DNA of 64,000 bases from Gammaproteobacteria bacterium (GTDB taxonomy: Bacteria; Pseudomonadota; Gammaproteobacteria; Eutrophobiales; Eutrophobiaceae), in contig JACPSH010000015.1 of the NCBI GenBank assembly GCA_016193395.1, positions 37,858 to 101,857 of the forward strand, read 5' to 3'. Made by a program: the position numbers and the translations under genes. Of this stretch, positions 8,951 through 43,983 are shown in pieces. Positions within the stretch are counted from its first letter, which is position 1. Each line of letters opens with the position of its first letter. The notes below the pieces were generated by a model. The model searched no databases, was not told the origin of the DNA, and worked only from the letters and a program-made list of their open reading frames with translations.

Positions 8951-8994
8951 GCGGGAATTGCACAAGATCATTGCGGGACGGTATAGCAGCAGCT

Positions 8995-11574: not shown

Positions 11575-11617
11575 GTCCACGGATGGACTTTTGCATAAAC
11601 TTGTTAAGGGGGAAATC
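11575..11617. repeat. 45-bp palindromic motif, copy 2 (between the ACS 5' region and the PRTase gene)
   Basis: GATGTAAAAGTCCACGGATGGACTTTTGCATAAACTTGTTAAG matches copy 1 at ~36/43 positions, including the tail ...GCAT(C/A)A(C/A)C(G/T)TGTTA. Confidence 0.75.
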
Positions 11618-18447: not shown

Positions 18448-18640
18448 AGCGCCGATAGGTTGCGGGATCGATGGCCGCCAATCGAGTAGCTTGCTGTATT
18501 CATGTCGCAATGGCCGCCTATCCGGGGGCGGGTCGGCCCGGCGTTCATCCGGCGGCGATGAGCGGCGCGCGGGCCAGGGACGGTGCAGCGCGACGCGACC
18601 GCAGCGAGCGCGGCCGGGACGCAGCGCGAGCGGGAGCCGG

Positions 18641-18676
18641 ATGAATCCGGCCGGACCGCCCGTTGCGAGGGACTAA
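18641..18676. repeat. Stand-alone copy of the 'tail' module ATGAATCCGGCCGGACCGCCCGTTGCGAGGGACT between archease and rtcB
   Basis: It is near-identical to 39466-39500. It is preceded by a degenerate GC-rich stretch (18560-18640) and followed by an AT-rich TTGAAAAA element. Confidence 0.7.
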
Positions 18677-18679
18677 CAG

Positions 18680-18755
18680 GTTGTTGAAAAATGGCGGCGC
18701 ATCCTGCACCGCTTTATCAGGCCGTTGAAAAGGCTTTTTCAACAGCCTGCTAACG
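18680..18755. repeat. AT-rich 'TTGAAAAA' element (family copy)
   Basis: GTTGAAAAATGGCGGCGCATCCTGCACCGCTTTATCAGGCCGTTGAAAAGGCTTTTTCAACAGCCTGCTA. It is homologous to 33926-33990 (...ATTGAAAAATGCCGGTACATCCCTGCACCG...CGAAAAACGCTGTTTTTCAACAGCCTGCTA). Confidence 0.75.
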
Positions 18756-18853
18756 GAAGCGGGCACCCGGAGTCCGCCTAGAACGCAGGGATTTTTCAAA
18801 CGAGTACCCCGTAAGCCGCCTTGGGTGGATGATTCGTTGACTGGAGCCGAGAA

Positions 18854-20284
18854 ATGCGCCTCGACAACCTGGAACGCGTATCGGATATTTGCTGGCGGCT
18901 TGAGCCACACGGCGCGATGCGCGTGCCCGTCATTATTTATGGCGACGAGGCGTTGCTGCGGGGGATGGACGACAAGGTGGCCGAACAGGCCGCGAATGTC
19001 ACCATGCTGCCCGGGATCGTGAATGCCGTGTACGCGATGCCGGACGCACACTGGGGCTACGGCTTCCCCGTCGGCGGCGTGGCCGCCTTCGACGCCGACG
19101 AGGGCGGAGTCGTCTCCGCGGGCGGCGTGGGTTTCGATATCTCCTGCGGCGTGCGCACCCTGCATACCGGCCTGCGCCGCGAGCAACTGGAACCGGTCAA
19201 GACGCGGTTGGCCGAGGAACTGTTCCGGACCATCCCCGTCGGACTCGGCAGCACCGGCCGCATCGATCTCGGCGCCGCGGAGATGGATGCGATGCTCCGG
19301 GGCGGTGCGCGCTGGGCGGTGGAGCAGGGTTATGGCGAAGAGCGCGACCTGGAACGGATCGAGGAGCGTGGCCGGATGGCCGGGGCCCGCCCCGAGCAGG
19401 TGTCCGCCCATGCCAAGCAGCGACAGCAGCGGGAAATGGGCACGCTCGGATCGGGCAATCACTACCTCGAAGTGCAGCAGGTTGTCGATATACTCGATCC
19501 CGCCGCGGCGGGCGCATTCGGGCTCGGCAGGGGCGACGTGGTCGTCAGCATCCATTGCGGCTCGCGCGGGCTCGGACACCAGATCGGAACCGATTTCCTC
19601 AAGGCCATGGTCACGGCCGCCCCGCGCCACGGCATCGTCCTGCCGGATCGCGAACTCGCCTGCGCGCCATTGTCATCGGAACTGGGCCAGAACTACCTGG
19701 GCGCCATGCGCGCCGCGATCAACTGCGCGCTTGCCAACCGCCAGATCATCACGCACCTTGCGCGCGAAGTCTTCCGGCGCATGCTGCCCACAGCGCGGCT
19801 CGATCTGTTTTACGATGTTTCGCACAATACCTGCAAACTGGAAGACCATCGCGTGGCCGGGCGCAACCGGCGCCTGTACGTGCATCGAAAGGGCGCCACG
19901 CGCTCGTTCGGCACCGGCCATGCCGACCTGCCGGAGGCCTTCCGCGAAGCCGGCCAGCCGGTATTGATCGGCGGGTCGATGGGCACCGCCTCGCACATCC
20001 TCGCGGGCGATCCCGACAACGACGAGAAGTCGTTCGCCTCCGCGTGCCACGGCGCCGGCCGGAGCATGAGCCGCCGCCAGGCATTGAAGACCTGGCAGGG
20101 GCGGAGCGTGGTGGACGAGCTGGCTGGCCGCGGCATTATCGTGCGCAGCCCTTCGCTGCGCGGCGTCGCGGAAGAAGCCCCGGGCGCGTACAAGGACGTG
20201 GACGCGGTAGTGGCCGCAACGGAACGGGCGGGTCTCGCGCGGCGCGTTGCGCGGCTGGAGCCGCTGCTGTGCATAAAGGGATGA
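18854..20284 (+). CDS. rtcB: RNA-splicing ligase RtcB (3'-phosphate/5'-hydroxyl nucleic acid ligase)
   Basis: The motifs PDAHWGYGFPVGGV, GGVGFDISCGVR and HNTCKLE...HRKGATRSF match RtcB active-site regions. The length is 476 aa. Confidence 0.9.
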   Translation: MRLDNLERVSDICWRLEPHGAMRVPVIIYGDEALLRGMDDKVAEQAANVTMLPGIVNAVYAMPDAHWGYGFPVGGVAAFDADEGGVVSAGGVGFDISCGVRTLHTGLRREQLEPVKTRLAEELFRTIPVGLGSTGRIDLGAAEMDAMLRGGARWAVEQGYGEERDLERIEERGRMAGARPEQVSAHAKQRQQREMGTLGSGNHYLEVQQVVDILDPAAAGAFGLGRGDVVVSIHCGSRGLGHQIGTDFLKAMVTAAPRHGIVLPDRELACAPLSSELGQNYLGAMRAAINCALANRQIITHLAREVFRRMLPTARLDLFYDVSHNTCKLEDHRVAGRNRRLYVHRKGATRSFGTGHADLPEAFREAGQPVLIGGSMGTASHILAGDPDNDEKSFASACHGAGRSMSRRQALKTWQGRSVVDELAGRGIIVRSPSLRGVAEEAPGAYKDVDAVVAATERAGLARRVARLEPLLCIKG

Positions 20285-20299
20285 GCTTCGCACCGGATC

Positions 20300-20480
20300 C
20301 CTCACGAACGCCAGGATCCGGGCGGGCGGGTTCTGTCATCGGACGCACCTGTCCGTGCTCGCTCCGGTCCCCTCCGCTTGCGCGCGGAGCAGGTGCGCCC
20401 GATGCCACCCGCCCGGTTTACGTGTCGGGGCGCGACAGGTGAACACGAAGGCGGTACCCGGCGACAGGACCCGTCCGCCC
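20300..20480. repeat. GC-rich imperfect-palindromic extragenic element (family copy, ~1.5 units) between rtcB and polX
   Basis: ...CCGTGCTCGCTCCGGTCCCCTCCGCTTGCGCGCGGAGCAGGTGCGCCCGATGCCACCCGCCCGG... followed by ...ACGAAGGCGGTACCCGGCGACAGGACCCGTCCG. It is homologous to the copies at 25195, 33727, 34022 and 39356. Confidence 0.75.
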
Positions 20481-20521
20481 GAAGCCTTGAACGTTTATGA
20501 ATAATCCGGGGCAACCAGCCG

Positions 20522-22225
20522 ATGCCCGTGCAGAATGAACACGTGGCTGAAATACTGGACGAGATCGCCGATCTGCTCGCCATCCAGGATGCCAACCCGT
20601 TCCGCGTGCGGGCGTACCACAATGCGGCGCGCACCGTGCGGGGGCTTTCCCGCGAACTGCATGATCTGATCGCACGCGGCAAGGACCTGACCGATCTTCC
20701 GGGGATAGGCGATGATCTCGCCGGCAAGATCAGGGAGATCGTCGGGACCGGCGCGTGCAGGGCCCTGGAAAAACTGCATCGACAGGTCCCGCACGAACTG
20801 GAGGAACTGCTCGCCGTCCCCGGGCTGGGGCCAAAACGGGTCAAGGCGCTGTTCTACGACCTGCGGATCCGCACCACGCAGCAGCTCGAGAAGGCGGCGC
20901 GCGCCGGCCGCCTGCGCAAGTTGCCGGGATTCGGCCAGAAGCTGGAACAGCGCATTCTTCAGGCCGTCGCCGCACGCCAGTCCGGGACGCGGCGCTTCAG
21001 CATCGACGTCGCGGAAGAATCCGGCGGAAAGCTCGCGGCCTATCTCGGATTGGTGCCGGGCACGGGCAAGGCCATCATTGCGGGCAGCTTTCGCCGCGGC
21101 CGTGAAACGGTCGGCGACCTCGACATCCTGGTGACGACCTCGCGGCCGGCGGCGGTCATGGAGCGATTCGCGGCTTACGACCAGGTGGCGCGCGTCACGT
21201 CCCGGGGCGCCACGCGTGCCTCCGCCGTCCTTCGGAACGGGCTGCAGGTGGATCTGCGGGTCGTGCCGAAGCAGAGTTTCGGCGCCGCCCTGCACTATTT
21301 CACCGGGGGCAAGGCGCATAACATCCGGGTCCGGACCCTCGGCCAGAAGTTCGGCCTGAAAATCAACGAATATGGCGTGTTCCGCGGAGCGAGACGCGTC
21401 GCCGGAGCGACTGAAGCATCCGTGTTCAAGTCCGTGGGCCTGCCCTTGATACCGCCAGAATTAAGGGAAGACCGCGGCGAGATCGAGGCAGCGCGCGCGC
21501 ACCGCCTGCCGCGGCTGGTCGAAGAAGGCGACCTCAGGGGCGATCTGCACGTCATCGCGAACGGGCGGGACGATCTGGTTGCGATGGCCATCGCCGCAAA
21601 GCGGCGGGGCCTGCGCTATATCGCCTTCACGATCCGGCAGGGACCGGACGCGCCGGCGGACGCCGTGCTCCGGCAACTCGACCGTATCGACCAGATCCGT
21701 GAACGCGCTGATGGCATGGTACTGCTCAAGGGGATCGAAGCCGAGATTCCCGAGGACGGCAGGCTGGACCTCCCGACCGAGGTGCTTGCGCGCCTCGATC
21801 TTCTGATCGGCGCGGCGCACGGGCAGTTCGAACTGACTCGCGCCAGGCAAACGGCGCGGCTGCTGCGAGCCATGGACAGCCCCTGTTTCACCATCCTGGC
21901 CCATCCGGGCGGACGCCTCCTGCCGGAGCGCGATGCCTGCTCGGTGGACATGGAGCGGATCGTGCGCGCCGCGCGCGTGCGCGGTTGTTTCCTGGAACTG
22001 AACTCACAACCGCAACGGCTCGACCTGGCCGACGTCCATTGCCAGATGGCGAAGGCGGAGGGCGTCCTGGTCAGCATCAACAGCGGCGCCCGCCAAGGGG
22101 AGGACTTCCGGGATCTGCGTTTCGGAATAACCCAGGCGCGGCGCGGATGGCTCGAAAAGGACGATGTGCTGAATACGCGTCCGCACGCCGCGTTGAAGCG
22201 GCTGCTCCGGCGGACGATGGACTGA
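20522..22225 (+). CDS. polX: Family X DNA polymerase with C-terminal PHP (3'-5' exonuclease/phosphoesterase) domain
   Basis: The N-terminal helix-hairpin-helix regions (LLAIQDANPFRVRAYHNAARTV, LPGIGDDLAGKIREIV, VPGLGPKRVKALF), the pol-beta palm motif GSFRRGRETVGDLDILV and the C-terminal PHP histidine motifs (HxH...) together indicate a PolX-PHP protein. Confidence 0.9.
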   Translation: MPVQNEHVAEILDEIADLLAIQDANPFRVRAYHNAARTVRGLSRELHDLIARGKDLTDLPGIGDDLAGKIREIVGTGACRALEKLHRQVPHELEELLAVPGLGPKRVKALFYDLRIRTTQQLEKAARAGRLRKLPGFGQKLEQRILQAVAARQSGTRRFSIDVAEESGGKLAAYLGLVPGTGKAIIAGSFRRGRETVGDLDILVTTSRPAAVMERFAAYDQVARVTSRGATRASAVLRNGLQVDLRVVPKQSFGAALHYFTGGKAHNIRVRTLGQKFGLKINEYGVFRGARRVAGATEASVFKSVGLPLIPPELREDRGEIEAARAHRLPRLVEEGDLRGDLHVIANGRDDLVAMAIAAKRRGLRYIAFTIRQGPDAPADAVLRQLDRIDQIRERADGMVLLKGIEAEIPEDGRLDLPTEVLARLDLLIGAAHGQFELTRARQTARLLRAMDSPCFTILAHPGGRLLPERDACSVDMERIVRAARVRGCFLELNSQPQRLDLADVHCQMAKAEGVLVSINSGARQGEDFRDLRFGITQARRGWLEKDDVLNTRPHAALKRLLRRTMD

Positions 22226-22600
22226 CAGAACCGCCCGGCTCAGCGTTTCCAGGCCGCCACGAGCCGGCGACACTCCCTGCGCCATTCGCAGTCCCCGTTT
22301 CGGCAATGGAGGCGCTCCTGCGTCATGAAGCAGGCCTTCCTGCCGGCGGCCCTCTGTTCGGAACGCACCCATTCCGTTCTGGAAACAAAGGTGGTGGATC
22401 GCACCGGCAGCCACTTCCCTTGTACTGCCGCCACGGTTTCGGTACGTTGTGTCGCCATGCCTCGTCGAACTCCTGCCTTGCGGGATCTTGCAGCGTTTGT
22501 CTGATCCCGGGGTCGCGACTGACCGCGTGACCTTCACCCCCTGAATCCGGCGCAACCGGAAACAGACTGCCGCTCTTTTATCAAAGGTAGATGACCCACG

Positions 22601-22614
22601 GGACAATTCGTTTG
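22601..22614 (+). promoter_or_regulatory. FNR/CRP-like palindrome TTGACacagATCAA ~30 bp upstream of glgP
   Basis: It is a 9/10 match to the FNR consensus. Its spacing to the ATG at 22644 is short, so it may act as an operator or be coincidental. Confidence 0.3.
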
Positions 22615-22643
22615 ACACAGATCAAGAGCAGGCGACGTTCGCG

Positions 22644-25178
22644 ATGATGTCAGGCACTTCCTTCACGCTGGAAATCCAGCCCCGGATCCCGACGGAGTTC
22701 GCGCGCCTGGAGGAACTGGCCGCGGATCTGTACTTCAGCTGGGACCGGCACACCCGCGGGCTGTTCTTCTCTCTCGACCCGGAACTCTGGGATCGATGCG
22801 GCCACAATCCGAAGGTATTCCTGCGGCGCGTTTCGCAGAAACGGCTCGAGGAAGCCGCGACCGATCGCGCCCTGCTGGAAGAGTACCAGCGCACCCTGGC
22901 TTACTACGACATCTATCACAAGGAAGGCAAGCGCCCACAACGCAGCCACGGCCTGGACAGCGAGCTGGTCGCTTATTTCTGCGCCGAATTCGGGCTGCAT
23001 GAGAGCCTGCCGATCTATTCCGGGGGTCTCGGCATCCTCGCCGGGGACTTCTGCAAGGCCGCGAGCGATATTGCCCTGCCGTTTGTTGCGGTGGGGATCT
23101 TCTACCGCACCGGCAACCTGCTCCAGACCATCGATGACAGCGGCCACCAGATCCTGCACAACCTGCCGGTGGAACCGGATGACCTGCCGGTACGCCTGAT
23201 CCGCGAGGCGGACGGGCGGGAACTCACGGTGACCGTGGAGTTGGCGCATGGCTCGGTCGTCGTCCGCGTCTGGCAGGTCAAGGCGGGCCATACGTACCTG
23301 TATCTGCTCGATACGGACGTCGAAAGCAACGCGGAGGCCGACCGCGCGATCACGCATAATCTTTATCCCGCCGACAAGGAGATGCGCCTCAGGCAGGAGA
23401 TTGTGCTCGGCATTGGCGGCGTGCGCGCCCTGGAGAAACTGGGGCTCCACCCTGCGATCTGGCACATCAACGAGGGGCATCCCTCATTCCTGCTCGTGGA
23501 ACGCTGGAGTCAACTGGTGCGCGAAGGGATGGAATTCCATGCGGCGCTGGAGATCGTGGCGTCCACGACCATTTTCACGACGCATACGCCGGTCACGGCC
23601 GGCCACGAGGTATACGACCATCATCTCATTCATGCGTACCTTCCAAGCCTGACGCGGGGACTCGGGGTCAGCCAGGAGGAATTCCTGTCGCTCGGCGCCG
23701 TCCAGGACCGGCCGGGATTCAACCTCACCACGTTCGCCTTGCGCTGTTCCCGCTACTACAACGGCGTGAGCCGGATTCACCGGCGCGTGGCCGCGGCGCT
23801 CGAGCGTCACATGTGGCCGGAGATCCCGATCGACGAGAACCCCTTCGGCTACGTCAACAACGGCATTCACGTCCCCACTTTCCTGGCGCGCAACTGGTTC
23901 GGCGTGCTGGAAGGCCCCGGCTGGCATAACGAACTGCTGAACGTCGACTACTGGCGGCGCATCGATGCCATCCCGGATGCCACGTTCTGGAGCGTGCGGC
24001 TCTCCCTCAAGGCGGCGCTGCTGAAGGAATGCCGTCGCGTCGTGGAGTTGCGCTGCCGGCGGCACGGCCACAGCGTGCAGCAGACCGAATGCGCCACGGA
24101 ACAGCTGCGCAACGAGGGCAACATGCTGGTCATCGGATTTGCCCGGCGCTTCGCCACTTACAAGCGCGCGACGCTGCTGTTCGAAAACCCGGACCGGCTC
24201 CACCGGCTCGTGAATAACGAGCAGCGGCCGGTGTTGCTCATCTTCGCCGGCAAGGCGCACCCGAATGACGAGCCGGGCAAGGAGCTGATCGCGCGCATCA
24301 ATGATTTCTCGAAGCGCCCCGGGTTCCAGGGGCGCGTGGTGCTCCTCGAAGGCTACGACCTGTCGCTGGCGCGGCGACTCGCGGCCGGGGTTGACGTATG
24401 GATCAACGTTCCGGAATACCCCATGGAAGCCAGCGGGACATCGGGGATGAAGGCGGCGATCAACGGCGCCATCAACCTCAGCATCATGGACGGCTGGTGG
24501 GCGGACGGGTACAACGGGCACAACGGCTGGGCGCTGCAGCCGCATGCCTCGGAACCGAATCCCGAAGTGCGCAGGCGCCTCGAGGCCCAGGAACTGCTGG
24601 ACACGCTCGAGAACGAGGTCATTCCGCTCTATTTCCGCACGGGCGCGGGCTATCCGGATGAATGGGTGAAGATGGCCAAGGAGTCGATGAAATCGATCAT
24701 CCCTCGCTTCAATTCGGAGCGCATGGTCATGGATTACATCAACCAGTTCTACATCCCGTCTCTGCAGACCTCGCGCCGCCTCCGGGCGGACAACAGCGCC
24801 GCGGCGCTCGAGCTGGCGCAGTGGAAAAAGCGTGTCCGCGCAAGCTGGCCCGGCGTCCAGTTGCATTCTATCGGCGACAGCAAGAAAGCGATCCGGCAGG
24901 GCGAAAACCTGACGGTCAGGGTGGCCGTCCGGTTAAACGGCCTGCAGAGCCAGGATCTCACCGTGGAATGCCTGGTCGGTATTGCCACCGATCACCAGGA
25001 TTTCAAAGTCACCGCCCGCCACCTGCTGCACGCTGTCGGGACGCAGGATCATGAGACGATCTATGAATGCAGCTTCGCGCCGGACCTGTCCGGCCTCGTG
25101 ACCTACAAGCTCCGCGCCTATCCGGGCCACTCGCTGCTTTCCCGGCGCTTCGAGATGGGGTTCATGAAGTGGATCTGA
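22644..25178 (+). CDS. glgP: Alpha-glucan (glycogen) phosphorylase, GT35 bacterial/archaeal long type
   Basis: The 844-aa protein carries the motifs AYFCAEFGLHESLPIYSGGLGILAGD and ASGTSGMKAAINGAINLSIMDGWW (pyridoxal-phosphate region). Confidence 0.9.
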   Translation: MMSGTSFTLEIQPRIPTEFARLEELAADLYFSWDRHTRGLFFSLDPELWDRCGHNPKVFLRRVSQKRLEEAATDRALLEEYQRTLAYYDIYHKEGKRPQRSHGLDSELVAYFCAEFGLHESLPIYSGGLGILAGDFCKAASDIALPFVAVGIFYRTGNLLQTIDDSGHQILHNLPVEPDDLPVRLIREADGRELTVTVELAHGSVVVRVWQVKAGHTYLYLLDTDVESNAEADRAITHNLYPADKEMRLRQEIVLGIGGVRALEKLGLHPAIWHINEGHPSFLLVERWSQLVREGMEFHAALEIVASTTIFTTHTPVTAGHEVYDHHLIHAYLPSLTRGLGVSQEEFLSLGAVQDRPGFNLTTFALRCSRYYNGVSRIHRRVAAALERHMWPEIPIDENPFGYVNNGIHVPTFLARNWFGVLEGPGWHNELLNVDYWRRIDAIPDATFWSVRLSLKAALLKECRRVVELRCRRHGHSVQQTECATEQLRNEGNMLVIGFARRFATYKRATLLFENPDRLHRLVNNEQRPVLLIFAGKAHPNDEPGKELIARINDFSKRPGFQGRVVLLEGYDLSLARRLAAGVDVWINVPEYPMEASGTSGMKAAINGAINLSIMDGWWADGYNGHNGWALQPHASEPNPEVRRRLEAQELLDTLENEVIPLYFRTGAGYPDEWVKMAKESMKSIIPRFNSERMVMDYINQFYIPSLQTSRRLRADNSAAALELAQWKKRVRASWPGVQLHSIGDSKKAIRQGENLTVRVAVRLNGLQSQDLTVECLVGIATDHQDFKVTARHLLHAVGTQDHETIYECSFAPDLSGLVTYKLRAYPGHSLLSRRFEMGFMKWI

Positions 25179-25194
25179 GTCGAAGAGCGGCGAT

Positions 25195-25315
25195 TGACGG
25201 ACGGGTGGCACCGGGGACTCCTGTTCCGCGCGCAGCGAGAGGGCCTCTCCAGCGGCTGGTTCAAGCGAGCACGGACAGGAGTGCCCGGTGACAGGACCCG
25301 TCCGCTGACCCGCGT
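25195..25315. repeat. GC-rich imperfect-palindromic extragenic element between convergent glgP and malQ
   Basis: GGACGGGTGGCACCGGGGACTCCTGTTCCGCGCGCAGCGAGAGG...GAGCACGGACAGGAGTGCCCGGTGACAGGACCCGTCCG. The outer arms are reverse complements (GGACGGGTGGCACCGGG / CCCGGTGACAGGACCCGTCC). Confidence 0.8.
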
Positions 25316-26757
25316 CAGCATCGCCCGTACAAACCGTTGAGGTGCCGGAGCCAGCCGCCGAGTTCGGGTCTGATCAGGTTCCAATCCAGGCAGTACTTCC
25401 AGTTGCCATCCACCGTGCCGGGCGTGTTGGTCCGGTGCGCGGCCCCGAGCACCAGCAGGTCCTGCATCGGCAGGATTGCAAATCGACACACGGAACCCAG
25501 CGCGGCGTTGATCAGCGGCCACGGCATCGGCTCGGGCGGCTGGCGCAGATAGTCCATCACTTTCATCTTTTGCCCTGTATCGAGCGCTTCATACCACCCG
25601 ACGGTCGTGTTGTTGTCGTGCGTGCCGGTATACACGACGGCCTCCGGCTCGAGGTTGTGCGGCAGGTACGGGTTGCTCGCGTCGCCGTCGAAGGCGAACT
25701 GCAGCACCTTGACGCCCGGCAACCGGAATTTCTTGCGCAGCTTCTCCACAGGCGGCGTGATGATCCCGAGGTCCTCGGCGATGCACGGCAGGGGCCCCAG
25801 CGACTTTCGCAGGGTACGAAGCAGCGCTTCTCCCGGCACCGGCCGCCACTCCCCACGCTGCGCGGTCGGGCAGTCCGCCGGAATTTCCCAGAGAGCTTCC
25901 AGTCCGCGGAAATGATCGATGCGGACGATGTCGAAGAGTTGCAGCTGCCGGTGCATGCGCTCAACCCACCACTGGAACCCCTGTTCCCGCAGGCGACCCC
26001 AGTGATAAACGGGGTTGCCCCAGCGCTGGCCGGTCGAGGAGAAGTAATCCGGCGGCACGCCGGCGACGACCGTCGGTTGTCCGCGCGCATCGAGCTGGAA
26101 ATACTCCGAGTGGGACCAGACGTCTGCGCTGTCATGGGCGACAAACAGGGGCATATCGCCGAAGAGCAGAATGCCGAGCGCCTTGGCGATCGATCGCATT
26201 TCGTTCCACTGGCACGAGAACAGGAATTGCGCGAAACACCACCGTTCGATTGCATCCGCGTGATCCGAATGGAACGCCGCAAGCGCCCCGGCTTTGCGGT
26301 CGCGCAATCCGTCGGGCCAATTCCACCACGGTTGGTTGCCGCAGACGTCCCGGATCGCCATGAACAGGGCATAATCGTTGAGCCAGTATCGTGATTGCTC
26401 CCGAAATGCGGCGAAGCCGGCGCGGTCCTCTGTCCCCGCGCGCGCATTGAACGCGGCCAGAGCGGCGCCCCCGCCTTCACCGCCAAACCAGGCAGTCTGG
26501 GCAAGGCGCTGGCTGCTGATCAGTCCCGGGTGGCCGGCGAACGCGGAGCAACCCTGATAAGGAGAAGAATGGGCATCGACCGGTTGCACGGGCAACAACT
26601 GCCAGATCCTGAAACCGGTATCCGACAGGAATTGCAGGAATCGCCGGGCCGGATCGCCCAGCCCGCCGCCATCGGACGGTACGGCGAGCGCGCTCAGCGG
26701 CAGCAGGATCCCCGCGCGCCGGCGTTCGAACCAGTCTCCGTGCCGTGCGCGACTCAT
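25315..26757 (-). CDS. malQ: 4-alpha-glucanotransferase (amylomaltase, GH77)
   Basis: The N-terminus RRAGILLPLSAL is typical of MalQ. The internal motifs ...GVPPDYFSSTGQRWGNPVYHW... and ...IAEDLGIITPPV... match GH77 catalytic regions. Confidence 0.9.
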   Translation of the reverse strand: MSRARHGDWFERRRAGILLPLSALAVPSDGGGLGDPARRFLQFLSDTGFRIWQLLPVQPVDAHSSPYQGCSAFAGHPGLISSQRLAQTAWFGGEGGGAALAAFNARAGTEDRAGFAAFREQSRYWLNDYALFMAIRDVCGNQPWWNWPDGLRDRKAGALAAFHSDHADAIERWCFAQFLFSCQWNEMRSIAKALGILLFGDMPLFVAHDSADVWSHSEYFQLDARGQPTVVAGVPPDYFSSTGQRWGNPVYHWGRLREQGFQWWVERMHRQLQLFDIVRIDHFRGLEALWEIPADCPTAQRGEWRPVPGEALLRTLRKSLGPLPCIAEDLGIITPPVEKLRKKFRLPGVKVLQFAFDGDASNPYLPHNLEPEAVVYTGTHDNNTTVGWYEALDTGQKMKVMDYLRQPPEPMPWPLINAALGSVCRFAILPMQDLLVLGAAHRTNTPGTVDGNWKYCLDWNLIRPELGGWLRHLNGLYGRC

Positions 26758-26787
26758 ACTGCCGGAGGGGCCCGCTGGTGCTCCGCG

Positions 26788-29773: not shown

Positions 29774-29954
29774 CCGAGCGCCGGGTGCGGCGGCTGTCGG
29801 TCGGCCGCGCGCGACTTCCGTTCAGGCTACGGAACCGGGCCGGGCGCATGCTGACCCAGGTCAATATGGTAACGATTACCGGCGATTATTCTAGGCATCG
29901 TACCCCGGAACGGCATAACGAAAACGTGCGGGGTCGACAATTGAGGAGGCGATC

Positions 29955-32141: not shown

Positions 32142-32236
32142 CCGCCCGCCGCGCATCGCGTCCGCCGGCGGCGGTACGGAACGCAACCGTTCCGCGGCGG
32201 ACGCGCGCGCGCGCCCGGACGGCGCCGCGGATCCTG

Positions 32237-33688: not shown

Positions 33689-33726
33689 AGCCGGCCGGCT
33701 ACATTTCGAAATGTTGCCGGACGGGT

Positions 33727-33825
33727 CCTGTCACCGGGCGCCCCTTTTCCGTGCTCGTGCGGTCCCCTCACTTGCGCGCGGAAGAAGGGGAGTGCCCGGT
33801 GCCACCCGTCCGTTCGACTCTAGCA
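33727..33825. repeat. GC-rich palindromic extragenic element (opposite orientation) downstream of glgA
   Basis: GGACGGGTCCTGTCACCGGGCGCCCC...CCGTGCTCGTGCGGTCCCCTCACTTGCGCGCGGAAGAAGGGGAGTGCCCGGTGCCACCCGTCCG. It equals the reverse-complement orientation of the 39356 copy. Confidence 0.8.
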
Positions 33826-33995
33826 TGATGTTGAAAAACGATTTCCATATCGTTTTTCAACTCGCAAAGCAAAAATGCGATTTCCGCTTTGCTCCATTTT
33901 TCAATCGCTTGCCGCGATTGAAAAATGCCGGTACATCCCTGCACCGGGCGCAGGCTGTCGAAAAACGCTGTTTTTCAACAGCCTGCTAGAGCGTG
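33826..33995. repeat. Cluster of four AT-rich hairpins carrying the TTGAAAAA motif (composite element)
   Basis: Hairpin 1 is GTTGAAAAACGAT-ttccat-ATCGTTTTTCAAC (perfect). Hairpin 2 is GCAAAGC...GCTTTGC. Hairpin 3 is CATTTTTCAATCGC-ttgcc-GCGATTGAAAAATG (perfect). Hairpin 4 is GCAGGCTGTCGAAAAACG/CTGTTTTTCAACAGCCTGC. The region is much lower in GC than its surroundings. Confidence 0.8.
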
Positions 33996-34021
33996 AATCC
34001 GACCGGATTCAGGCATAGGTG

Positions 34022-34140
34022 CTGACCGGGCGGGTGACATCGGGTCACCGCTCTTCGCGCGCAGCGTAAGCGAGCACGAAGACGGTACCCGATGGCAGGA
34101 CCCGGCCGCGCTGAAGCGGGAATGAATCCGGCCGGACCTT
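34022..34140. repeat. GC-rich palindromic element plus 'ATGAATCCGGCCGGACC' tail module
   Basis: GACCGGGCGGGTGACATCGGGTCACCGCTCTTCGCGCGCAGCGTAAGCGAGCACGAAGACGGTACCCGATGGCAGGACCCGGCCG is followed by GGGAATGAATCCGGCCGGACCTTGCACTACTGA. Confidence 0.7.
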
Positions 34141-34174
34141 GCACTACTGATACGGCGAGCGGGGCAGGAAGCGG

Positions 34175-34726
34175 TCAGGGCAGGCGCGAGATGAACTCCG
34201 CGGGGGGCTTGCGCAGGGTCGCGGGGATCTCGGCGGGTATCCCATACCAGAAAATGCCGACGACGCGCTCCCTGGCGGGATCGATGCGCGTGATCTCGAA
34301 AAAGCGCGGATCGCGTATGACTTCCCCGGTCGTCCATTTGACGCCGATGCCGCGGTCCCAGAGAAAGAGCATCATGTTCTGGGCCGCGCAGCAACACGCC
34401 GCATAGTCCTCCCAGCACCGCACTTCATCGGCCTCCCGCTGGCAGGTCAGCAACAGCCAGCCCGGGATGGCGCGCCAGCGCCGCAGTTTCATCTCCGCGG
34501 CCCGTTCGCCCTTGCCGGCCCTCACCCGTTCCGCGTTGAGCAGGCATATGGCTTCCACAGTTTCCGGTCCCAGCAGGTAAAAGCGCCACGGTTGCGTGAG
34601 GTAATGGTTTGGCGCCCACGACGCGTGCGCGATCGCATCCAGGATGACGACCTGCGGCGGCGCCCCGGGCCGGAACTCGTGGATGGTCCGGCGGCCGCGG
34701 ATCGTGTCAGCGATGGTTGCAATCAT
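34175..34726 (-). CDS. Nitroreductase-family protein
   Basis: MIATIADTIRGRRTIHEFRPGAPP... is the nitroreductase N-terminal (R/S)xR pattern. The length is ~183 aa. Confidence 0.7.
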   Translation of the reverse strand: MIATIADTIRGRRTIHEFRPGAPPQVVILDAIAHASWAPNHYLTQPWRFYLLGPETVEAICLLNAERVRAGKGERAAEMKLRRWRAIPGWLLLTCQREADEVRCWEDYAACCCAAQNMMLFLWDRGIGVKWTTGEVIRDPRFFEITRIDPARERVVGIFWYGIPAEIPATLRKPPAEFISRLP

Positions 34727-34751
34727 AATGTTGTCGTCTCCGTCGGATCGA

Positions 34752-36389
34752 CTATGTCCCCTCGCGCCTCGCCCGGATGACCACTTCGCGCGCCTCCTTC
34801 AGGCGCAGGTTGTCCGGCGTCAACAGCAGCAGCTCATCGATATAGGCCTCAGCCCGATCGTAGTCCCGCTCCTTGATGGCCTGCCTCACGATGATCTGGA
34901 ATTCGTTGCTGATTGCGCGCAGCTTCTGGAGCGCGTCGCGGTCGCCGGGGTTCTGCTGAAGCCTGCGGCGGATGGCAGCGAGCCGTTCGCGTTCGCGCGG
35001 ACCGATAAGGAGCGCCTGGTCCGGATGGGCAGCGGCTGCAAGCTTCGGCGTGGCCGGAGCGCTTTCGGACATCCTGGAATCGGGCCGGTTCGCTGGCGGC
35101 GGTGCCGTGGATTTCTGCGATTCCGCCGTGCCCGGGATCGGGTCCTGCGCGGTCGTCTTCTCCGTCAGGAGTTGAGTCATCTCCGGAGGCGGTTCGGAGG
35201 TTGTCACCGGGACAGCCTCTGAACTTTCCGCTGGCACGGCCACGGACCCGGGTATGTGTTCCGGGACAGGTTCGCGCCCGGGCTGCTGGAACAGGGCAAT
35301 CCCGATCACGCCCAAGAGCGCCACGGCCGCCAGTGAGCCCGCGACCAGGCGGCTGCGCCGGGAACGCGTGTCGCTCGTGACGGCCACGTCGGGCACGGCC
35401 CCGGCAATCATGGTGATCTTCACCGTGTCGTTTACCGCCGGTGCGGCGGTCTTTGCGCGCGCGACCTCCGTCGCCGCCTCGGATCGCTCCGTGGGCATGA
35501 CCGGGCCCTGAAGATCGCGGCGCCATTCCGCGATCGTCTGCGGGCGGTCTTCAGTCCGGAACGCCATGGCGCGGTCAATTGCACCGAGCAGCCGCTTCGA
35601 GTATCCGGACGGATCGAGCTCGACGAGGGGTACGTACACGTCGCGCCCCGTTTGCAGCAGCGCTTCACTGCGGTTCATGGCGTCGACGGGCGCGCGGCCG
35701 ATGACCAAGCGGTAGAGCGTCGCGCCCAGGCCATAGATGTCGGTCCATGGACCCTGCTTGTCGCTCTTGCCGGTGTACTGCTCGAAAGGGGCGAATCCCG
35801 GCGAAACGAGCGTGGTCAGCGTCCGCGTCGCGACGCTCAACGACTGCCGCGCCGAACCGAAGTCGAGCAGCACCGGGCTGAAGTCGCCGCGCACGAAGAT
35901 GTTCGCCGGCTTGATGTCGCGGTGGATAAAGCCGCGGTCGTGCACCTGCTCCAGGCCATCCAGGATCGGCATCAGCAGGCCGTTGAGTTCGGCTTCCGGC
36001 AGCGTACCGCGCTCCTTGAGGATTTCGTGAAGCGCCTGTCCCTGCTCATATTCCATGATCATGTAGGCGGTGTTGTTCTCCGTGAATACGGTGAACACAC
36101 GCACGATATTGGCGTGCTTGAACTGCGCCAGTGTCCGCGCCTCGCTGATGAACCTGTCCAGCCCCCAGCGGAACTGTTCTTCATGCTCCGGCGACCGTGG
36201 GTGGACAGAGGTATCGCTTCCCCGCGCCGCCATTTCCACGGGCAGGTATTCCTTCACGGCCACCACCTGGTTCAGGTTAGTGTCCATCGCCAGGTAGGTA
36301 ATACCAAAGCCGCCCTGCCCCAGCACTTCGCGGATCACGTACCAGTGAATCCGGTAACCGGGAGGCAGCGCGTTGCGATGTTCAGCCAT
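34752..36389 (-). CDS. Serine/threonine protein kinase with a membrane-spanning segment and a C-terminal extracytoplasmic TPR-like region
   Basis: The kinase domain is indicated by LGQGGFGITYLA...VAVKEY (ATP-binding lysine), HRDIKPANIF and DFGSA. A hydrophobic segment (LVAGSLAAVALLGVIGIALF) follows the kinase domain. Confidence 0.85.
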   Translation of the reverse strand: MAEHRNALPPGYRIHWYVIREVLGQGGFGITYLAMDTNLNQVVAVKEYLPVEMAARGSDTSVHPRSPEHEEQFRWGLDRFISEARTLAQFKHANIVRVFTVFTENNTAYMIMEYEQGQALHEILKERGTLPEAELNGLLMPILDGLEQVHDRGFIHRDIKPANIFVRGDFSPVLLDFGSARQSLSVATRTLTTLVSPGFAPFEQYTGKSDKQGPWTDIYGLGATLYRLVIGRAPVDAMNRSEALLQTGRDVYVPLVELDPSGYSKRLLGAIDRAMAFRTEDRPQTIAEWRRDLQGPVMPTERSEAATEVARAKTAAPAVNDTVKITMIAGAVPDVAVTSDTRSRRSRLVAGSLAAVALLGVIGIALFQQPGREPVPEHIPGSVAVPAESSEAVPVTTSEPPPEMTQLLTEKTTAQDPIPGTAESQKSTAPPPANRPDSRMSESAPATPKLAAAAHPDQALLIGPRERERLAAIRRRLQQNPGDRDALQKLRAISNEFQIIVRQAIKERDYDRAEAYIDELLLLTPDNLRLKEAREVVIRARREGT

Positions 36390-36459
36390 GAAGTAGAGAC
36401 CGTCTATTTACAGATGCTTTTGAACCCGCCGGGCGTCCAAGAATACGGACTGGTTCGCG

Positions 36460-37653
36460 TCATCGTTGCACGGTCGCGCGCACACGCCGATCTTCGGGCA
36501 GGAACCACTGCAGCAGGTCGTTAAGATGGCAGCGCCCAAATTCGGTCGGCTGGACGCGTCCGGCGCCTTGCGCGAGCAAACCCCGATCCGCGGCCTGGCG
36601 CAGTCCCGGAGCCAGCGCTTCCGCATCGAGCCCCGTGCGTGCCGTGAACAGGGCCAACGCAAAGCCCTCCGTCAGTCGGCAGGCGTTCAGCATGAATTCG
36701 ATCACCCGATCCGATGCCGCCAGTTCCTGGCGGCGCACCACCACGGCCGGCGTCCCGGCCAGTTTCATGTAACGCTCGGGCAGGCGATGGCGCGCATGGC
36801 GTGTGATGGTCCCGCGCTCGACGTCGGTCAGCTTGCCGTGCGCGCCCGCGCCGATGCCGAGATAGTCCCCGAATTCCCAGTAATTGATATTGTGCCGGCA
36901 TTCGTGCCCCGGCGCGGCCCAAGCCGACACCTCGTATTGCCTGAAACCCGCGTCGCGGAGTTGCTGCTGCCCGAGCACGCGCATGTCCCAGATTGTATCC
37001 TCGTCCGGCAATCGGGGAGGCGCGCTATAGAAAGCGGTATTCGGCTCGATGGTCAATTCGTACCAGGAGACGTGCGTGGGCCGCAGCGCCACGAGCCGCC
37101 GCAGGTCATCCATGGCCGCAGCCGGGGTCTGAGCGGGCAGGCCATGCATCAGATCCATGTTGATCCGGGTAAAGCCCGCGGCGTGCGCGATAGCCGCGGC
37201 GCGGATCGCCTCGGCCGAGTCATGGATGCGTCCGAGGGATCTGAGGCTGGCGTCATCGAGACTCTGCATGCCGAGCGACAGGCGATTGATGCCAAGACCG
37301 TGGTAGCCGGCAAAGCGCCGTGCTTCGGCAGTCCCCGGGTTGGCCTCGAGCGTGATCTCCGCCCCCGGCGCGACGGCATCGTGGCGGGCGAGAACCTCGA
37401 GCAGGCGCCCGATGGCGCCGGCAGGGAACAGGCTGGGCGTACCGCCGCCGAAGAATATTGTCTGGAACCGCCGCCCGTGCAGTTGCGGAAGCTCCTGCTC
37501 CACATCTCGGATCAACGCGTCCAAATAAGCCCGATCCGGCACGGCGCCCGGACCGATGCCGTGCGAATTGAAATCGCAGTACGGGCATTTGCGCACGCAC
37601 CAGGGCAGGTGCACGTACAGCGAAACCGGCGGCGGTTGCAGACGCGTACTCAC
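36460..37653 (-). CDS. hemW: Radical SAM family heme chaperone HemW (oxygen-independent coproporphyrinogen-III oxidase-like)
   Basis: The N-terminus LYVHLPWCVRKCPYCDFNS carries the CxxxCxxC radical-SAM motif. The length is 397 aa. The rdgB-hemW adjacency is conserved. Confidence 0.85.
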   Translation of the reverse strand: MSTRLQPPPVSLYVHLPWCVRKCPYCDFNSHGIGPGAVPDRAYLDALIRDVEQELPQLHGRRFQTIFFGGGTPSLFPAGAIGRLLEVLARHDAVAPGAEITLEANPGTAEARRFAGYHGLGINRLSLGMQSLDDASLRSLGRIHDSAEAIRAAAIAHAAGFTRINMDLMHGLPAQTPAAAMDDLRRLVALRPTHVSWYELTIEPNTAFYSAPPRLPDEDTIWDMRVLGQQQLRDAGFRQYEVSAWAAPGHECRHNINYWEFGDYLGIGAGAHGKLTDVERGTITRHARHRLPERYMKLAGTPAVVVRRQELAASDRVIEFMLNACRLTEGFALALFTARTGLDAEALAPGLRQAADRGLLAQGAGRVQPTEFGRCHLNDLLQWFLPEDRRVRATVQR

Positions 37654-38279
37654 GCCGTTGCCGCGCTTCGCGGCCGCAACATGGCGGACAGCTCACGCCG
37701 CAGTTCCATCAGGGCCCGGGCTCGATGGCTGATCCGGTTTTTCACTTCGGGGGGCAACTCGGCGGAGGTGCAGCCGTGGGTCGGCACGAAAAAGACCGGG
37801 TCGTAGCCGAAACCGTTCCGGCCCCTCGGTTCCATCACCACGAATCCCTCCCATGTCCCGCGTGCGATCACGGGCGCCGGATCGTCAGCGTCGCTTACAA
37901 AGGCCATGGCGCATTGAAAGCGCGCGGCGGGACGCACGGCGCCGGTGCAGGCTATTCGATACAGCAACAATCTCAGATTGTCCTCGTCGCTGGCGCACTG
38001 CCCCGCGTAACGGGCGGATCGAACGCCGGGCTCCCCGCCGAGCACATCCACTTCCAGCCCGGAGTCGTCGGCGATGGCAGGGAGGCCCGCGTGTTGCGCG
38101 GCGTGGCGCGCTTTGAGCACGGCGTTCGCCGCAAAGCTGTCTTCCGACTCCTCCACCTCCGGGATCGCCAGCTCAGGCAGCGGCACGATGTCCACGTCCA
38201 GCCCGGCCATCATTTCGCGGAATTCCTTCAGTTTCCCTGGATTGCGGCTCGCCAGCACGACACTCCGATGCGAATGCAT
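37650..38279 (-). CDS. rdgB: RdgB/HAM1 family non-canonical purine NTP pyrophosphatase
   Basis: The motifs VVLASRNPGKLKEF and ...AIADDSGLEVDVLGGEPGVRSARYAG... are present, together with the C-terminal ...FGYDPVFF... motif. Confidence 0.85.
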   Translation of the reverse strand: MHSHRSVVLASRNPGKLKEFREMMAGLDVDIVPLPELAIPEVEESEDSFAANAVLKARHAAQHAGLPAIADDSGLEVDVLGGEPGVRSARYAGQCASDEDNLRLLLYRIACTGAVRPAARFQCAMAFVSDADDPAPVIARGTWEGFVVMEPRGRNGFGYDPVFFVPTHGCTSAELPPEVKNRISHRARALMELRRELSAMLRPRSAATA

Positions 38280-38282
38280 GTC

Positions 38283-38999
38283 CTACCCCTGAAGCGCCTG
38301 CTCCTGGATTGCGAACAGCCGCCGGATTCCGGAGTCCGCGAGATCCAGCATCGCTTCAAGCTCGGTGCGGGTGAACGCGCGACCCTCCGCAGTGCCCTGC
38401 ACCTCCACGAATTCCCCGGCACTGTTCATGACCACGTTCATGTCGGTCTGCGCGCCCGCGTCTTCGGCATAGTCCAGGTCGAGGACCGGCTGGCTGCCGA
38501 GGATACCCACGGATACGGAGGCGACCTTGCCGCGCAGGGGATCGCCGGCAATGAGCCCGTTATTCCGGCCGGTCCGGATGGCATCGGCCAGCGCAACGAA
38601 GCCGCCGGTGACGGACGCCGTGCGCGTACCGCCATCGGCCTGGATCACGTCACAGTCGATCAAAATGGAGCGTTCGCCGAGCGCCTGCATGTCCACCACG
38701 GCCCGCAACGAGCGTCCAATCAGGCGCTGGATTTCGTGCGTGCGTCCCCCCTGCCGTTGTTGACTGGCCTCGCGGCGCATGCGTTCCGTGGTCGAGCGCG
38801 GCAGCATGCCGTATTCCGCCGTCACCCAGCCGCGTCCCTGCCCCTTGAGGAACGCCGGCACGGTATTGTCGATCGTGGCGTTGCAGATCACGCGCGTCCT
38901 GCCGAACTCGACGAGCACCGATCCCTCCGCGTGGCAGGTGTAGTTGCGCGTCAACGTGACTTTTCGAAGTTCGTCGTTCGCTCGTCCGTCCGTCCGCAT
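38283..38999 (-). CDS. rph: Ribonuclease PH
   Basis: [20 protein letters not shown]...[18 protein letters not shown]... matches Rph. The ORF was trimmed to the internal Met, giving ~238 aa. Confidence 0.9.
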
Positions 39000-39047
39000 G
39001 ATCTCTTCTCCGTGGCTGCTTGCATTGGGCACGGGAATTATACCGGC

Positions 39048-39160
39048 AGGCGGATCGCCGGGTGCTTGTTCCTCTCAGCCCGTCGGATCGGGCGGTCCGG
39101 CCGGCTTCATCCTGCCCCATCATAGAGGGCGGATCGCCGGGTAGTCGTTCCGCTCATTTT
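39048..39160. repeat. Two ~32-bp direct repeats, GGCGGATCGCCGGGT(g/a)(c/g)T(t/c)GTTCC(t/g)CTCA, 80 bp apart, upstream of rph
   Basis: The copies are at 39048-39080 and 39128-39160. They lie in a 600-bp structured divergent region that also contains the perfect hairpin GCGAATCA-ttcc-TGATTCGC at 39206-39225. Confidence 0.55.
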
Positions 39161-39355
39161 CCGGCCGCTGGGACGTCTTGGCCGGGCTTATTCCGCTTTC
39201 GCTTCGCGAATCATTCCTGATTCGCTCGCGGCTAGCGCAGCGCACTTCACCGTCCTGGCTGCGTGCGCTGCTTAAGCCGCTCCACAAGCCCGGCCAAGCC
39301 GTCTTTACGCGGCCAGACTTCAGCAACGGTACGGCCGGATTCACGTGCAGGAGAT

Positions 39356-39500
39356 AAACGGACGGGTGGCGCCGGGCACTCCCCTGTTCCGCGCGCAAGC
39401 GAGGGGACCGAGCGAGCACGGACAGGGGTGCCCGGTGACAGGACCCGGCCGCCCACCAACGCAAACATGATTCCGGCCGGACCGCCCGTTACGTGGGACT
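39356..39500. repeat. GC-rich palindromic element plus tail module in the rph/yicC divergent region
   Basis: GGACGGGTGGCGCCGGGCACTCCCCTGTTCCGCGCGCAAGCGAGGGGACCGAGCGAGCACGGACAGGGGTGCCCGGTGACAGGACCCGGCCG is followed by the tail CATGATTCCGGCCGGACCGCCCGTTACGTGGGACTC. Confidence 0.8.
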
Positions 39501-39633
39501 CATCGAAACAAATACCCGGCAGGCCGCCGGTGGCAACACTCGCGGCAGTTATTTAGTATGGGGCCGGACCCGTGCTCCGTTTCAGCAGCCCCTGACATGC
39601 AGCCGGGTCGATCGAACACAGAGGAGACCCGGC

Positions 39634-43709: not shown

Positions 43710-43983
43710 GCAGACAATTGCTCCTGCGATTTCTGCATTTCCGCCATCCCTGGCGGTCATCCCTGGCGGCCATCCCGGGCGGTCATCCCGGGCGGTCGCA
43801 GAAAATTGCTCCTGCATTTTCTGCATTTCCGCCGTCCCTGGCGGTCATCCCGGGCGGTCATCCCTGGCGGTCATCCCGGGCGGTCGCAGAAAATTGCTCC
43901 TGCATTTTCTGCATTCCCGCCATCCCTGGCGGTCGCAGAAAATTGCTCCTGCATTTTCTGCATTCCCGCCATCCCTGGCGGTC
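43710..43983 (+). repeat. Nested tandem-repeat array: four 36-bp units, each followed by 4, 4, 1 and 1 copies of a 13-bp sub-repeat
   Basis: The 36-mer is GCAGA(A/C)AATTGCTCCTGC(G/A)TTTTCTGCATT(T/C)CCGCC. The 13-mer is ATCCC(T/G)GGCGG(T/C)C. The units start at 43710, 43798, 43886 and 43935. The 36-mer contains a 9-bp-stem hairpin, GCAGAAAAT/ATTTTCTGC. The array fills the gap between the spoT stop (43700) and the ridA core. Confidence 0.9.

Follow-up and report, generated by a model that had tools for sequence, protein, structure and literature searches.

What are the GC-rich palindromes that recur between the genes of this stretch of gammaproteobacterial DNA? The stretch analysed here, hereafter the window, comprises 64,000 nt of contig JACPSH010000015.1. 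An earlier note, made by reading its letters, had proposed a family of at least six imperfect palindromes, taken for elements of the repetitive extragenic palindromic (REP/BIME) or ERIC kind or for a non-autonomous MITE (miniature inverted-repeat transposable element), and assigned to no described family. We find that the window carries five full copies and one half copy of a hairpin core, that the core is held to a covarying structure, and that well-preserved relatives in metagenomes are enclosed by terminal inverted repeats and matching tetranucleotides. The copies are probably a non-autonomous mobile element, a MITE, mobilised in trans by a transposase with an IS5-like choice of YTAR targets. 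The earlier suspicion about the kind of element is thereby supported: these are extragenic imperfect palindromes that match no described family in Rfam, PLSDB or Escherichia coli genomes. The family is previously undescribed, and its class, that of MITEs and ERIC-like elements, is already known.

Copies in the window

Copies were sought with nhmmer, using a hidden Markov model (HMM) built from the five window copies, by an unfiltered scan of the entire 64 kb with a covariance model, and by repeat finding. All three recovered the same five full GC-rich hairpin cores of 82-107 nt, with nhmmer E-values of 1.6e-15 to 4e-23 and covariance-model scores of 78-112 bits (E = 4e-13 to 6e-20), which confirms a repeat family present in both orientations. 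Beyond these and a single 3′ half copy, nothing rises over noise with the HMM or the covariance model anywhere in the 64 kb, and every copy falls within 20.3-39.5 kb, where four intergenic regions hold 5.5 copies. Of the six or more copies first proposed, five full copies and a 3′ half copy thus stand, and the degenerate copy at 18560-18640 finds no support: neither model matches it, local alignments of 18448-18640 against every copy stay within the range of shuffled sequence, and the tail at 18641 is the sole genuine family piece at that locus. The block once described at 20300-20480 is resolved by the list from the two models into a full minus-strand copy followed by a head-to-head half copy, which matches the right-arm pattern with one mismatch.

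Alignments bear out the architecture of long terminal inverted arms around a central GCGCGC palindrome: arms CGGACGGGTGG...ACAGGACCCGTCCG enclose a central CGCGCGCA...CGAGCACG. The five window copies share a pairwise identity of 56-89%, with a mean of 68%. The look-alike open reading frames (ORFs) to which the earlier note had drawn attention are artefacts, because the peptide shared by ORFs 25118..25522 and 39247..39468, GRVLSPGTPVRAR, is a reverse-strand translation of the 3′ arm. More generally, the ORFs across the unit are reverse-strand artefacts, and a 114-aa ORF at 39120-39464 has no Pfam match.

Fold, covariation and strand asymmetry of the core

Folding had been proposed as a check. 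Every window copy proves to form a single long hairpin, whose energy lies between -52 and -69 kcal/mol and whose z-score on the element strand is -3.1 to -6.0. An alignment of 19 distinct copies, of which the window supplied five and other sources 14, yields a consensus of 31 pairs in three helices, in which 95% of cells are paired and 11 of the 31 pairs show double-sided changes; none of 500 shuffles reaches the observed values. When the partners were slid by one to three columns as a control, pairing fell to 28-40% and at most four pairs kept double changes.

The outer stem P1 (CGGRCGGGT/ACCCGYCCG), an asymmetric internal loop of GG opposite ACAGG, and the second stem P2 (CRYCGGG/CCCGRTG) are strongly conserved, and so is a motif near the apex, TYCGCGCGCA...CGAGCACG. 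Majority fractions reach 0.90-0.98 in P1, the loops, P2 and P4, where most invariant columns also lie; in P3, the middle stem, the fraction is 0.65-0.68, not one column is invariant, and most of the covariation is concentrated there. The conserved positions persist although the window copies are as diverged as stated above, and GTGG is invariant directly 5′ of the inner hairpin, at the P1/P2 junction (GGGTGGCACCGGG).

The apex occurs in short, medium and long forms, and in addition there is a 189-nt core in metagenome contig L014 (89-281), in which some 80 nt of unrelated sequence are inserted at the apex. Left-half-only copies from metagenomes (L021 1666-1700 and L023; L024 44-137) break exactly there, directly after CGCGCGCAG, and so form the mirror image of the window's right-half-only copy. 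Breakage or insertion appears to favour the apex.

The two strands are not equivalent. In the consensus helices G-T cells number 34 and A-C cells 4 (13 and 4 when each distinct pair type is counted once), the consensus energy is -47.8 kcal/mol on the element strand against -32.4 kcal/mol on the opposite strand, and the element strand folds more stably in 18 of 19 copies. Counts of G-U pairs in minimum-free-energy folds of the single sequences show no strand difference (31 vs 40). That the hairpin folds better on one strand has moderate evidence, a grade chosen because the per-sequence counts are equal and the asymmetry is seen only in consensus helices and energies. A constrained, covarying and strand-asymmetric hairpin is the unusual feature of the family, and the reading we prefer for it is selection, at the level of the element, for the folding of one strand.

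Covariation together with invariant loop nucleotides is also the usual signature of a structured RNA, and the element strand is the one that folds better. Both observations speak for genes of a small RNA family, or for some other cis-regulatory RNA that has its own expression signals. We nevertheless hold this to be very improbable. Rfam returned no match at the gathering threshold in the window and none at E <= 10 for a window copy; with a metagenome copy at E <= 10 it returned one chance-level match of 15.6 bits, to a model of a human long non-coding RNA. No promoter-like or terminator-like site coincides with any core, and no neighbouring gene is conserved across the loci, where the flanking genes are unrelated. 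The terminal inverted repeats, half copies and nested insertions described below are features of mobile DNA.

Terminal inverted repeats and flanks

In the best-preserved metagenome subfamily, whose cores are 89-98% identical pairwise, the likeness between copies reaches past the core on both sides and defines a unit of 171-175 nt (253 nt in L014). The layout of this unit is TTAA or CTAG, then CCCGGATTATTCATGAACGG-spacer-core-spacer-CGTTCATGAATAATCCGGG, then again TTAA or CTAG, with unrelated sequence outside. A complete unit therefore reads, in order, as a terminal inverted repeat CCGGATT[ATT]CATGAAC, a spacer of about 14 nt, the core of 82-107 nt, a second spacer and the inverted repeat. The five intact copies, L006, L012, L017, L018 and L025, are each enclosed by terminal repeats 18-20 nt long, CCCGGATTATTCATGAACG and the inverse of it. 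Directly outside them, identical 4-nt flanks are found in four of the five: TTAA on both sides of L006 and L018, and CTAG on both sides of L017 and L025; L012 has CTAG on the left and CGAG on the right. L006 and L012 are 94% identical yet differ in their flanks, which argues that the flanks were derived from the target and were not inherited with the element. The insertion sequence (IS) IS5 duplicates a YTAR target (PMC5009759), a motif with four possible tetranucleotides that include TTAA and CTAG; neither CTAA nor TTAG flanks were seen in the hairpin family. It is these matched flanks, together with terminal inverted repeats in well-preserved relatives, that specifically favour a MITE.

In the window, copies 3, 4 and 5 and the pair 20322/20436 are bounded by homologous terminal repeats, shorter or degenerate; around none of the window copies does a target duplication stand out. 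We dropped the idea that the subfamilies carry unrelated terminal repeats, as CCGGATTCATG (window type) and CCGGATTATTCATG (metagenome type) are homologous and differ by a 3-nt indel.

The same termini bear on the main rival, a REP/REPIN-like element moved as single-stranded DNA by an HUH tyrosine transposase, either a REP-associated tyrosine transposase (RAYT) or one of the IS200/IS605 type. Such an enzyme would recognise the folded hairpin plus a short head motif, and the outer repeats with their TTAA or CTAG would be further stem. Several features speak for it. REPs likewise are extragenic palindromes whose stems are maintained by compensatory changes (PMC2817692), a strand-asymmetric fold suits a single-stranded substrate, and GTGG, which never varies at the base of the inner hairpin, recalls the REP head GT(A/G)G. 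The head-to-head pairs 20322/20436 and 33718/34026 recall the alternation seen in BIMEs, and the terminus CTAG-CCCGGAT...ATCCGGG resembles a Pseudomonas mendocina REP, GTAGCCCGGATGCAATCCGGG, in a 10-nt match that could be chance. At L012 1705-1877 a matched substitution occurs in both terminal repeats (GGACTATT...AATAGTCC in place of GGATTATT...AATAATCC), so that in one copy the outermost stem has changed in a compensatory way, which also fits a stem reaching to the ends. The dimensions and the flanks do not fit: REPs are defined as palindromes of 20-40 nt with a 5′ GT(A/G)G head (PMC2817692), whereas the present core of 82-107 nt, in a unit of about 173 nt, is three to five times longer, its outer tetranucleotide is TTAA or CTAG, and its GTGG is internal. 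The flanks vary between copies, match on both sides and ignore the relatedness of the elements, which is what target duplication predicts. The mixed orientation inside 19 kb contrasts with the strict strand bias of IS200/IS605-type insertion, and no Y1_Tnp/RAYT gene lies among the ORFs of the 64-kb window, bearing in mind that RAYTs are single-copy and the window is part of a genome. On balance we regard a REP/REPIN-like origin as unlikely, with a chance large enough to be kept in view.

The second module described by the earlier note, the tail ATGAWTCCGGCCGGACCGCCCGTTRCG.GGGACT, can now be placed. It is real sequence (the longer part of its pattern has 3 matches against 0.04 expected) but does not form a module of its own: its first part is the right terminal repeat in the window version, CATGAATCCGG, separated from the metagenome version by the 3-nt indel, and an extension follows. 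Inverted partners of this repeat lie left of the core at 39331-39345 and 33999-34013. Of the three copies that the tail was said to follow, copy 5 has it in full (39467) and the copy at 34026 has only its first ~19 nt, at 34121-34139. An extension of about 45 nt is common to the tails at 39466-39528, 39049-39118 (inverted) and 18640-18674, two of which have no adjoining core. Next to the solo tail at 39049-39118, a partial extra extension (GGCGGATCGCCGGGTAGTCGTTCC) lies at 39128-39160, and the rph-yicC spacer of 460 nt is pieced together from repeat fragments like a mosaic. For yicC, the GTG predicted as start codon (39493) falls inside the tail and the Pfam domain begins at residue 49, so the true start is probably further downstream.

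Copies in other genomes

The genome scan used a strict right-half pattern on one genome for each of 185,579 species. It found four metagenome-assembled genomes (MAGs) with one strict match each, and all four copies are full-length. Two hosts are Gammaproteobacteria from Rifle and groundwater, one is labelled Acidimicrobiia (locus of 73% GC) and one is labelled Enterobacteriaceae (locus of 62% GC). For JGI metagenomes the pattern was the left arm plus CGCGCGCA only; it found 23 contigs, 11 of them from one sample, and complete copies on 12 of the 23, with the right half conserved though it was no part of the pattern. The others include four copies cut by a contig end or truncated and two with the left half only; what remains resembles the left arm by chance. 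We set aside L010, L011, L019, L020 and L028 as chance matches to the 16-nt left arm, and rejected the left-half-only L021/L023 and L024 as autonomous elements, since they are truncated copies adjoining ordinary genes.

The search for further copies that the earlier note had called for has thus been made, and with four single-copy genome loci and full copies at 12 metagenome sites the family stands. The copies are not fragments of a duplicated gene, the other outcome that would have dissolved it. All 20 copies analysed, from the window and elsewhere, are intergenic.

Presence and absence can be followed at the window's own junctions. The window's GlgP is 100% identical to a protein of a Gammaproteobacteria MAG at NCBI. 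By GlgP the next relatives are only 66-67% identical, and the two that were examined (L033 and L034, the closest) carry no element in 32 kb. L033 shares the gene order rtcB...glgP-malQ-GH57-glgC-glgB-glgA; its glgP-malQ spacer is 35 nt against 136 nt in the window, and its archease-rtcB spacer is 0 nt (4893-5423/5423-6853) against 406 nt (18448-18853). This is presence and absence between distant relatives, not an empty site at strain level. Most of the 406-nt gap consists of repeat modules, namely a solo tail, a copy of a second MITE described below and further TTGAAAAA motifs, and 193 nt at 18448-18640 match nothing identified.

Might the hairpins instead be structural elements retained by the host and no longer mobile, acting in intergenic transcripts as a barrier to 3′ exonucleases, as an RNase III or RNase E site, or as a DNA site for a nucleoid protein? 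This would explain why old copies with 56-89% identity keep P1, the loops, P2 and P4 near-invariant. Several copies lie 10-40 nt past stop codons, the hairpins reach -52 to -69 kcal/mol, and effects at the RNA level, on mRNA stability and processing, are on record for ERIC (RNase E exposure, dependent on orientation) and for Correia elements (RNase III cleavage) (PMC10969869, PMC2229807). Yet despite the strand-asymmetric fold the neighbouring genes set no rule for orientation (of the copies between tandem genes, 6 are sense and 4 antisense), and neither a T-tract nor a terminator-like or promoter-like site marks a core. The flanking genes are unrelated between loci, and the closest relatives lack the element at the same junctions. 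We give host retention no better than a slim chance.

Search for a partner enzyme

If the copies are a MITE, their transposase would be encoded elsewhere, and we looked for an autonomous element with the family's ends. Pfam found no transposase, integrase or Y1/HUH domain in essentially all window ORFs. No autonomous IS with these ends was found in PLSDB, IMG/VR, the retrieved loci or the window; of the source genome and the metagenomes, only parts could be covered. Among PLSDB plasmids, queries with the full metagenome unit, the full window unit, and the terminal repeat plus spacer gave no matches or chance-level ones; among the viral contigs of IMG/VR, the terminal repeat and the right arm produced four matches, all attributable to chance and none with an element.

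The mobile-element reading weighed

Much of what characterises MITEs is found here: terminal inverted repeats, a small non-coding unit, and dispersed copies with presence and absence between relatives. Target duplication is backed by palindromic cases only. The following points weigh against a MITE. TTAA and CTAG are palindromic and could be four more base pairs of stem, and none of the five intact copies shows a non-palindromic duplication. The window encodes no transposase, and the cognate IS was not found in the collections just listed. The core is conserved better than the terminal repeats, the reverse of a textbook MITE, and copy 2 (25197) has no recognisable terminal repeats. A single strict match per MAG is atypical of an amplifying element; repeats are, however, often lost from MAGs.

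Some of these points would follow if the hairpin core itself were a functional, strand-specific module of single-stranded DNA or RNA and the terminal repeats merely its vehicle. The GG/ACAGG loop and CGCGCGCA...CGAGCACG would then form the docking site of a yet-undiscovered protein, which could be a new hairpin-recognising transposase or recombinase or a host factor for RNA binding or processing. Such a module would explain why the core is conserved above the ends, why single copies occur in MAGs labelled as different phyla, and why copies of 56-89% identity share the same invariant positions. We rate this whole proposal, docking site included, as doubtful.

If the copies are a MITE, as we favour, a transposase encoded elsewhere in the genome would bind the terminal repeats, insert the unit at YTAR sites and duplicate 4 bp. 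The enzyme would probably be a DDE transposase of the IS5 family or one of similar target choice, target choice being the sole ground for naming IS5. Selection may keep the hairpin if folding of a single strand is needed for the element's propagation, or for its tolerance on co-transcription; its RNA would adopt a stem-loop of great stability, by analogy with what has been shown for ERIC and Correia.

The window copies themselves are old, as their mean pairwise identity of 68% indicates; they have lost part of their ends, stand in head-to-head pairs and have received insertions of a second MITE. Such copies may now serve mainly as intergenic padding and as a source of spurious ORFs. It is because they are old, eroded and mosaic that the earlier reader saw a core plus an 'associated' module.

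Comparison with known elements

The closest likeness in form is to ERIC/IRU, the 127-bp imperfect palindromes of Enterobacteriaceae and Vibrionaceae that are classed as MITEs. Both families share a size class, a single long hairpin, terminal inverted repeats, an intergenic location in either orientation, insertion variants at the apex (here short, medium and long, and 189 nt in L014) and spurious ORFs. ERIC has terminal repeats of 7 bp and TA flanks, whereas the present family has repeats of 18-20 nt and TTAA or CTAG flanks, is GC-rich and carries an invariant core motif. There is no sequence similarity either: blastn at word size 11 against 5,426 complete E. coli genomes, which carry ERIC and REP/BIME, gave no match. 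The hosts also differ from those of ERIC, being uncultured Gammaproteobacteria of groundwater or sediment and one Acidimicrobiia-labelled MAG.

Correia (NEMIS) elements of Neisseria are likewise MITEs of 100-200 bp, with terminal inverted repeats of about 20-26 bp, and a transcript of the present hairpin would form a long double-stranded stem of the type that RNase III cleaves in Correia. They differ in having TA duplications, an IHF site and internal promoters, where the present family has no promoter-like site, and the sequences are unrelated. As for IS5-family IS and MITEs, the TTAA and CTAG flanks fit the YTAR target, and the terminal repeat matches no annotated IS in PLSDB.

Integron attC sites, such as those of the VCR type, are imperfect palindromes too: they measure 60-140 nt, their outer stems are conserved while a central spacer stays unpaired, they fold in a strand-specific way and their terminal structure varies. 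This identity was rejected: the R′′/R′ sites RYYYAAC...GTTRRRY are absent from the ends, which read CGGRCGGGT...ACCCGYCCG, the copies lie in both orientations and no integrase was found. The copies separate housekeeping genes (rtcB, polX, the glg operon, rph, yicC) and not cassettes.

The family is not a new class of system; the constraint on its core is the feature that deserves specialist attention. For annotation, it explains look-alike spurious ORFs, long spacers (406 nt between archease and rtcB, 460 nt between rph and yicC) and breaks in short-read contigs. Mobile-element biology gains a GC-rich, highly structured MITE family from uncultured groundwater and sediment Gammaproteobacteria, with one copy on a contig of 73% GC labelled Acidimicrobiia. 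If the constraint reflects the pairing of ends in very short transposons, or a hitch-hiking RNA function, the copies would be a convenient natural data set.

Gene context and coordinates

The window is an ordinary gammaproteobacterial chromosome, with a glg operon and the run rph-yicC-gmk-rpoZ-spoT-ridA-recG, in which ARAGORN found no tRNA or tmRNA. Gene calls from third-position GC and Pfam bear out that the copies lie only between genes, in both orientations and in tandem (rtcB/polX), convergent (glgP/malQ; glgA/nitroreductase, with two copies) and divergent (rph/yicC) contexts. Copy 2, which has a longer apex, occupies the 136-nt gap separating the glgP and malQ stop codons. The sole other assembly with the window's GlgP is Logan contig SRR12113425_31733 (L001, 8.9 kb), which starts at window position 20471, inside the repeat block 20436-20511; this fits a repeat that breaks short-read assemblies.

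Table 1. Hairpin cores, terminal repeats and tails of the family in the window
Feature	Position	Strand	Details
Core copy 1	20322..20416	-	nhmmer E = 9e-21; covariance model 89.9 bits; fold -64.9 kcal/mol, z = -6.0
Half copy, 3′ arm of core only, head-to-head with copy 1	20436..20478	+	nhmmer model positions 51-94, E = 7e-4; covariance model 16.9 bits
Core copy 2	25197..25305	+	nhmmer E = 4e-23; covariance model 112.5 bits; fold -69 kcal/mol
Core copy 3	33718..33813	-	nhmmer E = 1.7e-21; covariance model 83.1 bits; fold -61.9 kcal/mol, z = -5.5
Core copy 4, short apex	34026..34109	+	nhmmer E = 1.6e-15; covariance model 77.9 bits; fold -51.6 kcal/mol, z = -4.6
Core copy 5	39357..39452	+	nhmmer E = 1.3e-22; covariance model 83.6 bits; fold -58.3 kcal/mol
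Degenerate right terminal repeat of copy 1	20291..20310	-	CGTTCGTGAGGGATCCGGTG, begins 7 nt past rtcB stop; aligns with CGTTCATGAATAATCCGG
Right terminal repeat, metagenome type, after half copy	20492..20511	+	CGTTTATGAATAATCCGGGG, 10 nt before polX start codon; fuzzy match to CCGGATTATTCATGAACG, minus strand
Right terminal repeat of copy 3	33691..33705	-	AATGTAGCCGGCCGG, 3 mismatches to CATGAATCCGGCCGG; 3 nt past glgA stop; spacing from core agrees with other copies
Displaced left terminal repeat of copy 3	33989..34004	-	cut off from core by second MITE; abuts copy 4 left repeat head-to-head
Left terminal repeat of copy 4	33999..34013	+	CCGACCGGATTCAGG
Right terminal repeat of copy 4	34121..34139	+	AATGAATCCGGCCGGACC, 1 mismatch; likeness to other tails ends here
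Left terminal repeat of copy 5	39331..39345	+	ACGGCCGGATTCACG; 17/20 positions match right repeat reverse-complemented
Right terminal repeat of copy 5 plus tail extension	39466..39528	+	35-nt module of the earlier note = 39467-39500
Solo tail without core, just upstream of rph	39049..39118	-	terminal repeat plus extension; pattern match inverted at 39071-39118
Solo tail, no detectable core	18640..18674	+	extension resumes past second-family MITE inserted at 18671-18756

A second MITE family

The window also holds an unrelated MITE, with ends TAGCAGGCTGTTGAAAAA/TTTTTCAACAGCCTGCTA (also given as CAGGCTGTTGAAAAA/TTTTTCAACAGCCTG) and six end-motif matches against 0.01 expected. One copy, at about 18675-18752 (block 18671-18756), lies between direct CTAA...CTAA flanks, and its excision restores the tail extension as it stands in the other two tails. 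Another, the AT-rich stretch at 33825-33984 (block 33821-33988), has CTAG...CTAG flanks and lies between copies 3 and 4, nested in the left spacer of copy 3; excision restores a normal left spacer and terminal repeat, deletion of 33825-33988 joining CCGGTCGGATTCACGCTCTAGAGTCGAA to CGGACGGG in a sequence that aligns with the left end of copy 5. After excision, copies 3 and 4 abut head-to-head through a 16-nt near-palindrome, GAATCCGACCGGATTC. The excised 168-nt copy contains an extra internal end motif and three TTGAAAAA hairpins.

One end of this second MITE is identical at 23 of 23 positions to sequence 62 nt outside an annotated IS5-family transposase gene on the Sinorhizobium meliloti plasmid CP050559.1. 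The CTAA/CTAA and CTAG/CTAG duplications, together with the IS5-type end, show that this genome has undergone YTAR-type insertion, with the hairpin family itself among the targets. The terminal repeat of the hairpin family is unlike that IS5-type end, and the PLSDB search strategy that found an IS for the second MITE gave none for the hairpin family.

Other repeats in the window

Three further repeats lie elsewhere in the window. In the spoT/ridA gap, 43710-43984 is a tandem array of 88- or 49-nt units with matches of 93-98%; each unit consists of a hairpin (GCAGAAAATTGCTCCTGCATTTTCTGC) and one to four copies of the 13-nt CATCCCGGGCGGT, and the array overlaps the N-terminus of the predicted ridA ORF. 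An inverted repeat with 80-nt arms (8804-8883/8901-8980), 73% complementary and with a gap of 17 nt, is intergenic and lies past a URO-D-like gene. At 8994-9032 and 11561-11599, the palindrome ATGCAAAAGTCC(N5-6)GGACTTTTGCAT brackets a gene resembling ADP-forming acyl-CoA synthetase (9034-11358); a protein might bind it as an operator-type site, or it could be one more small repeat.

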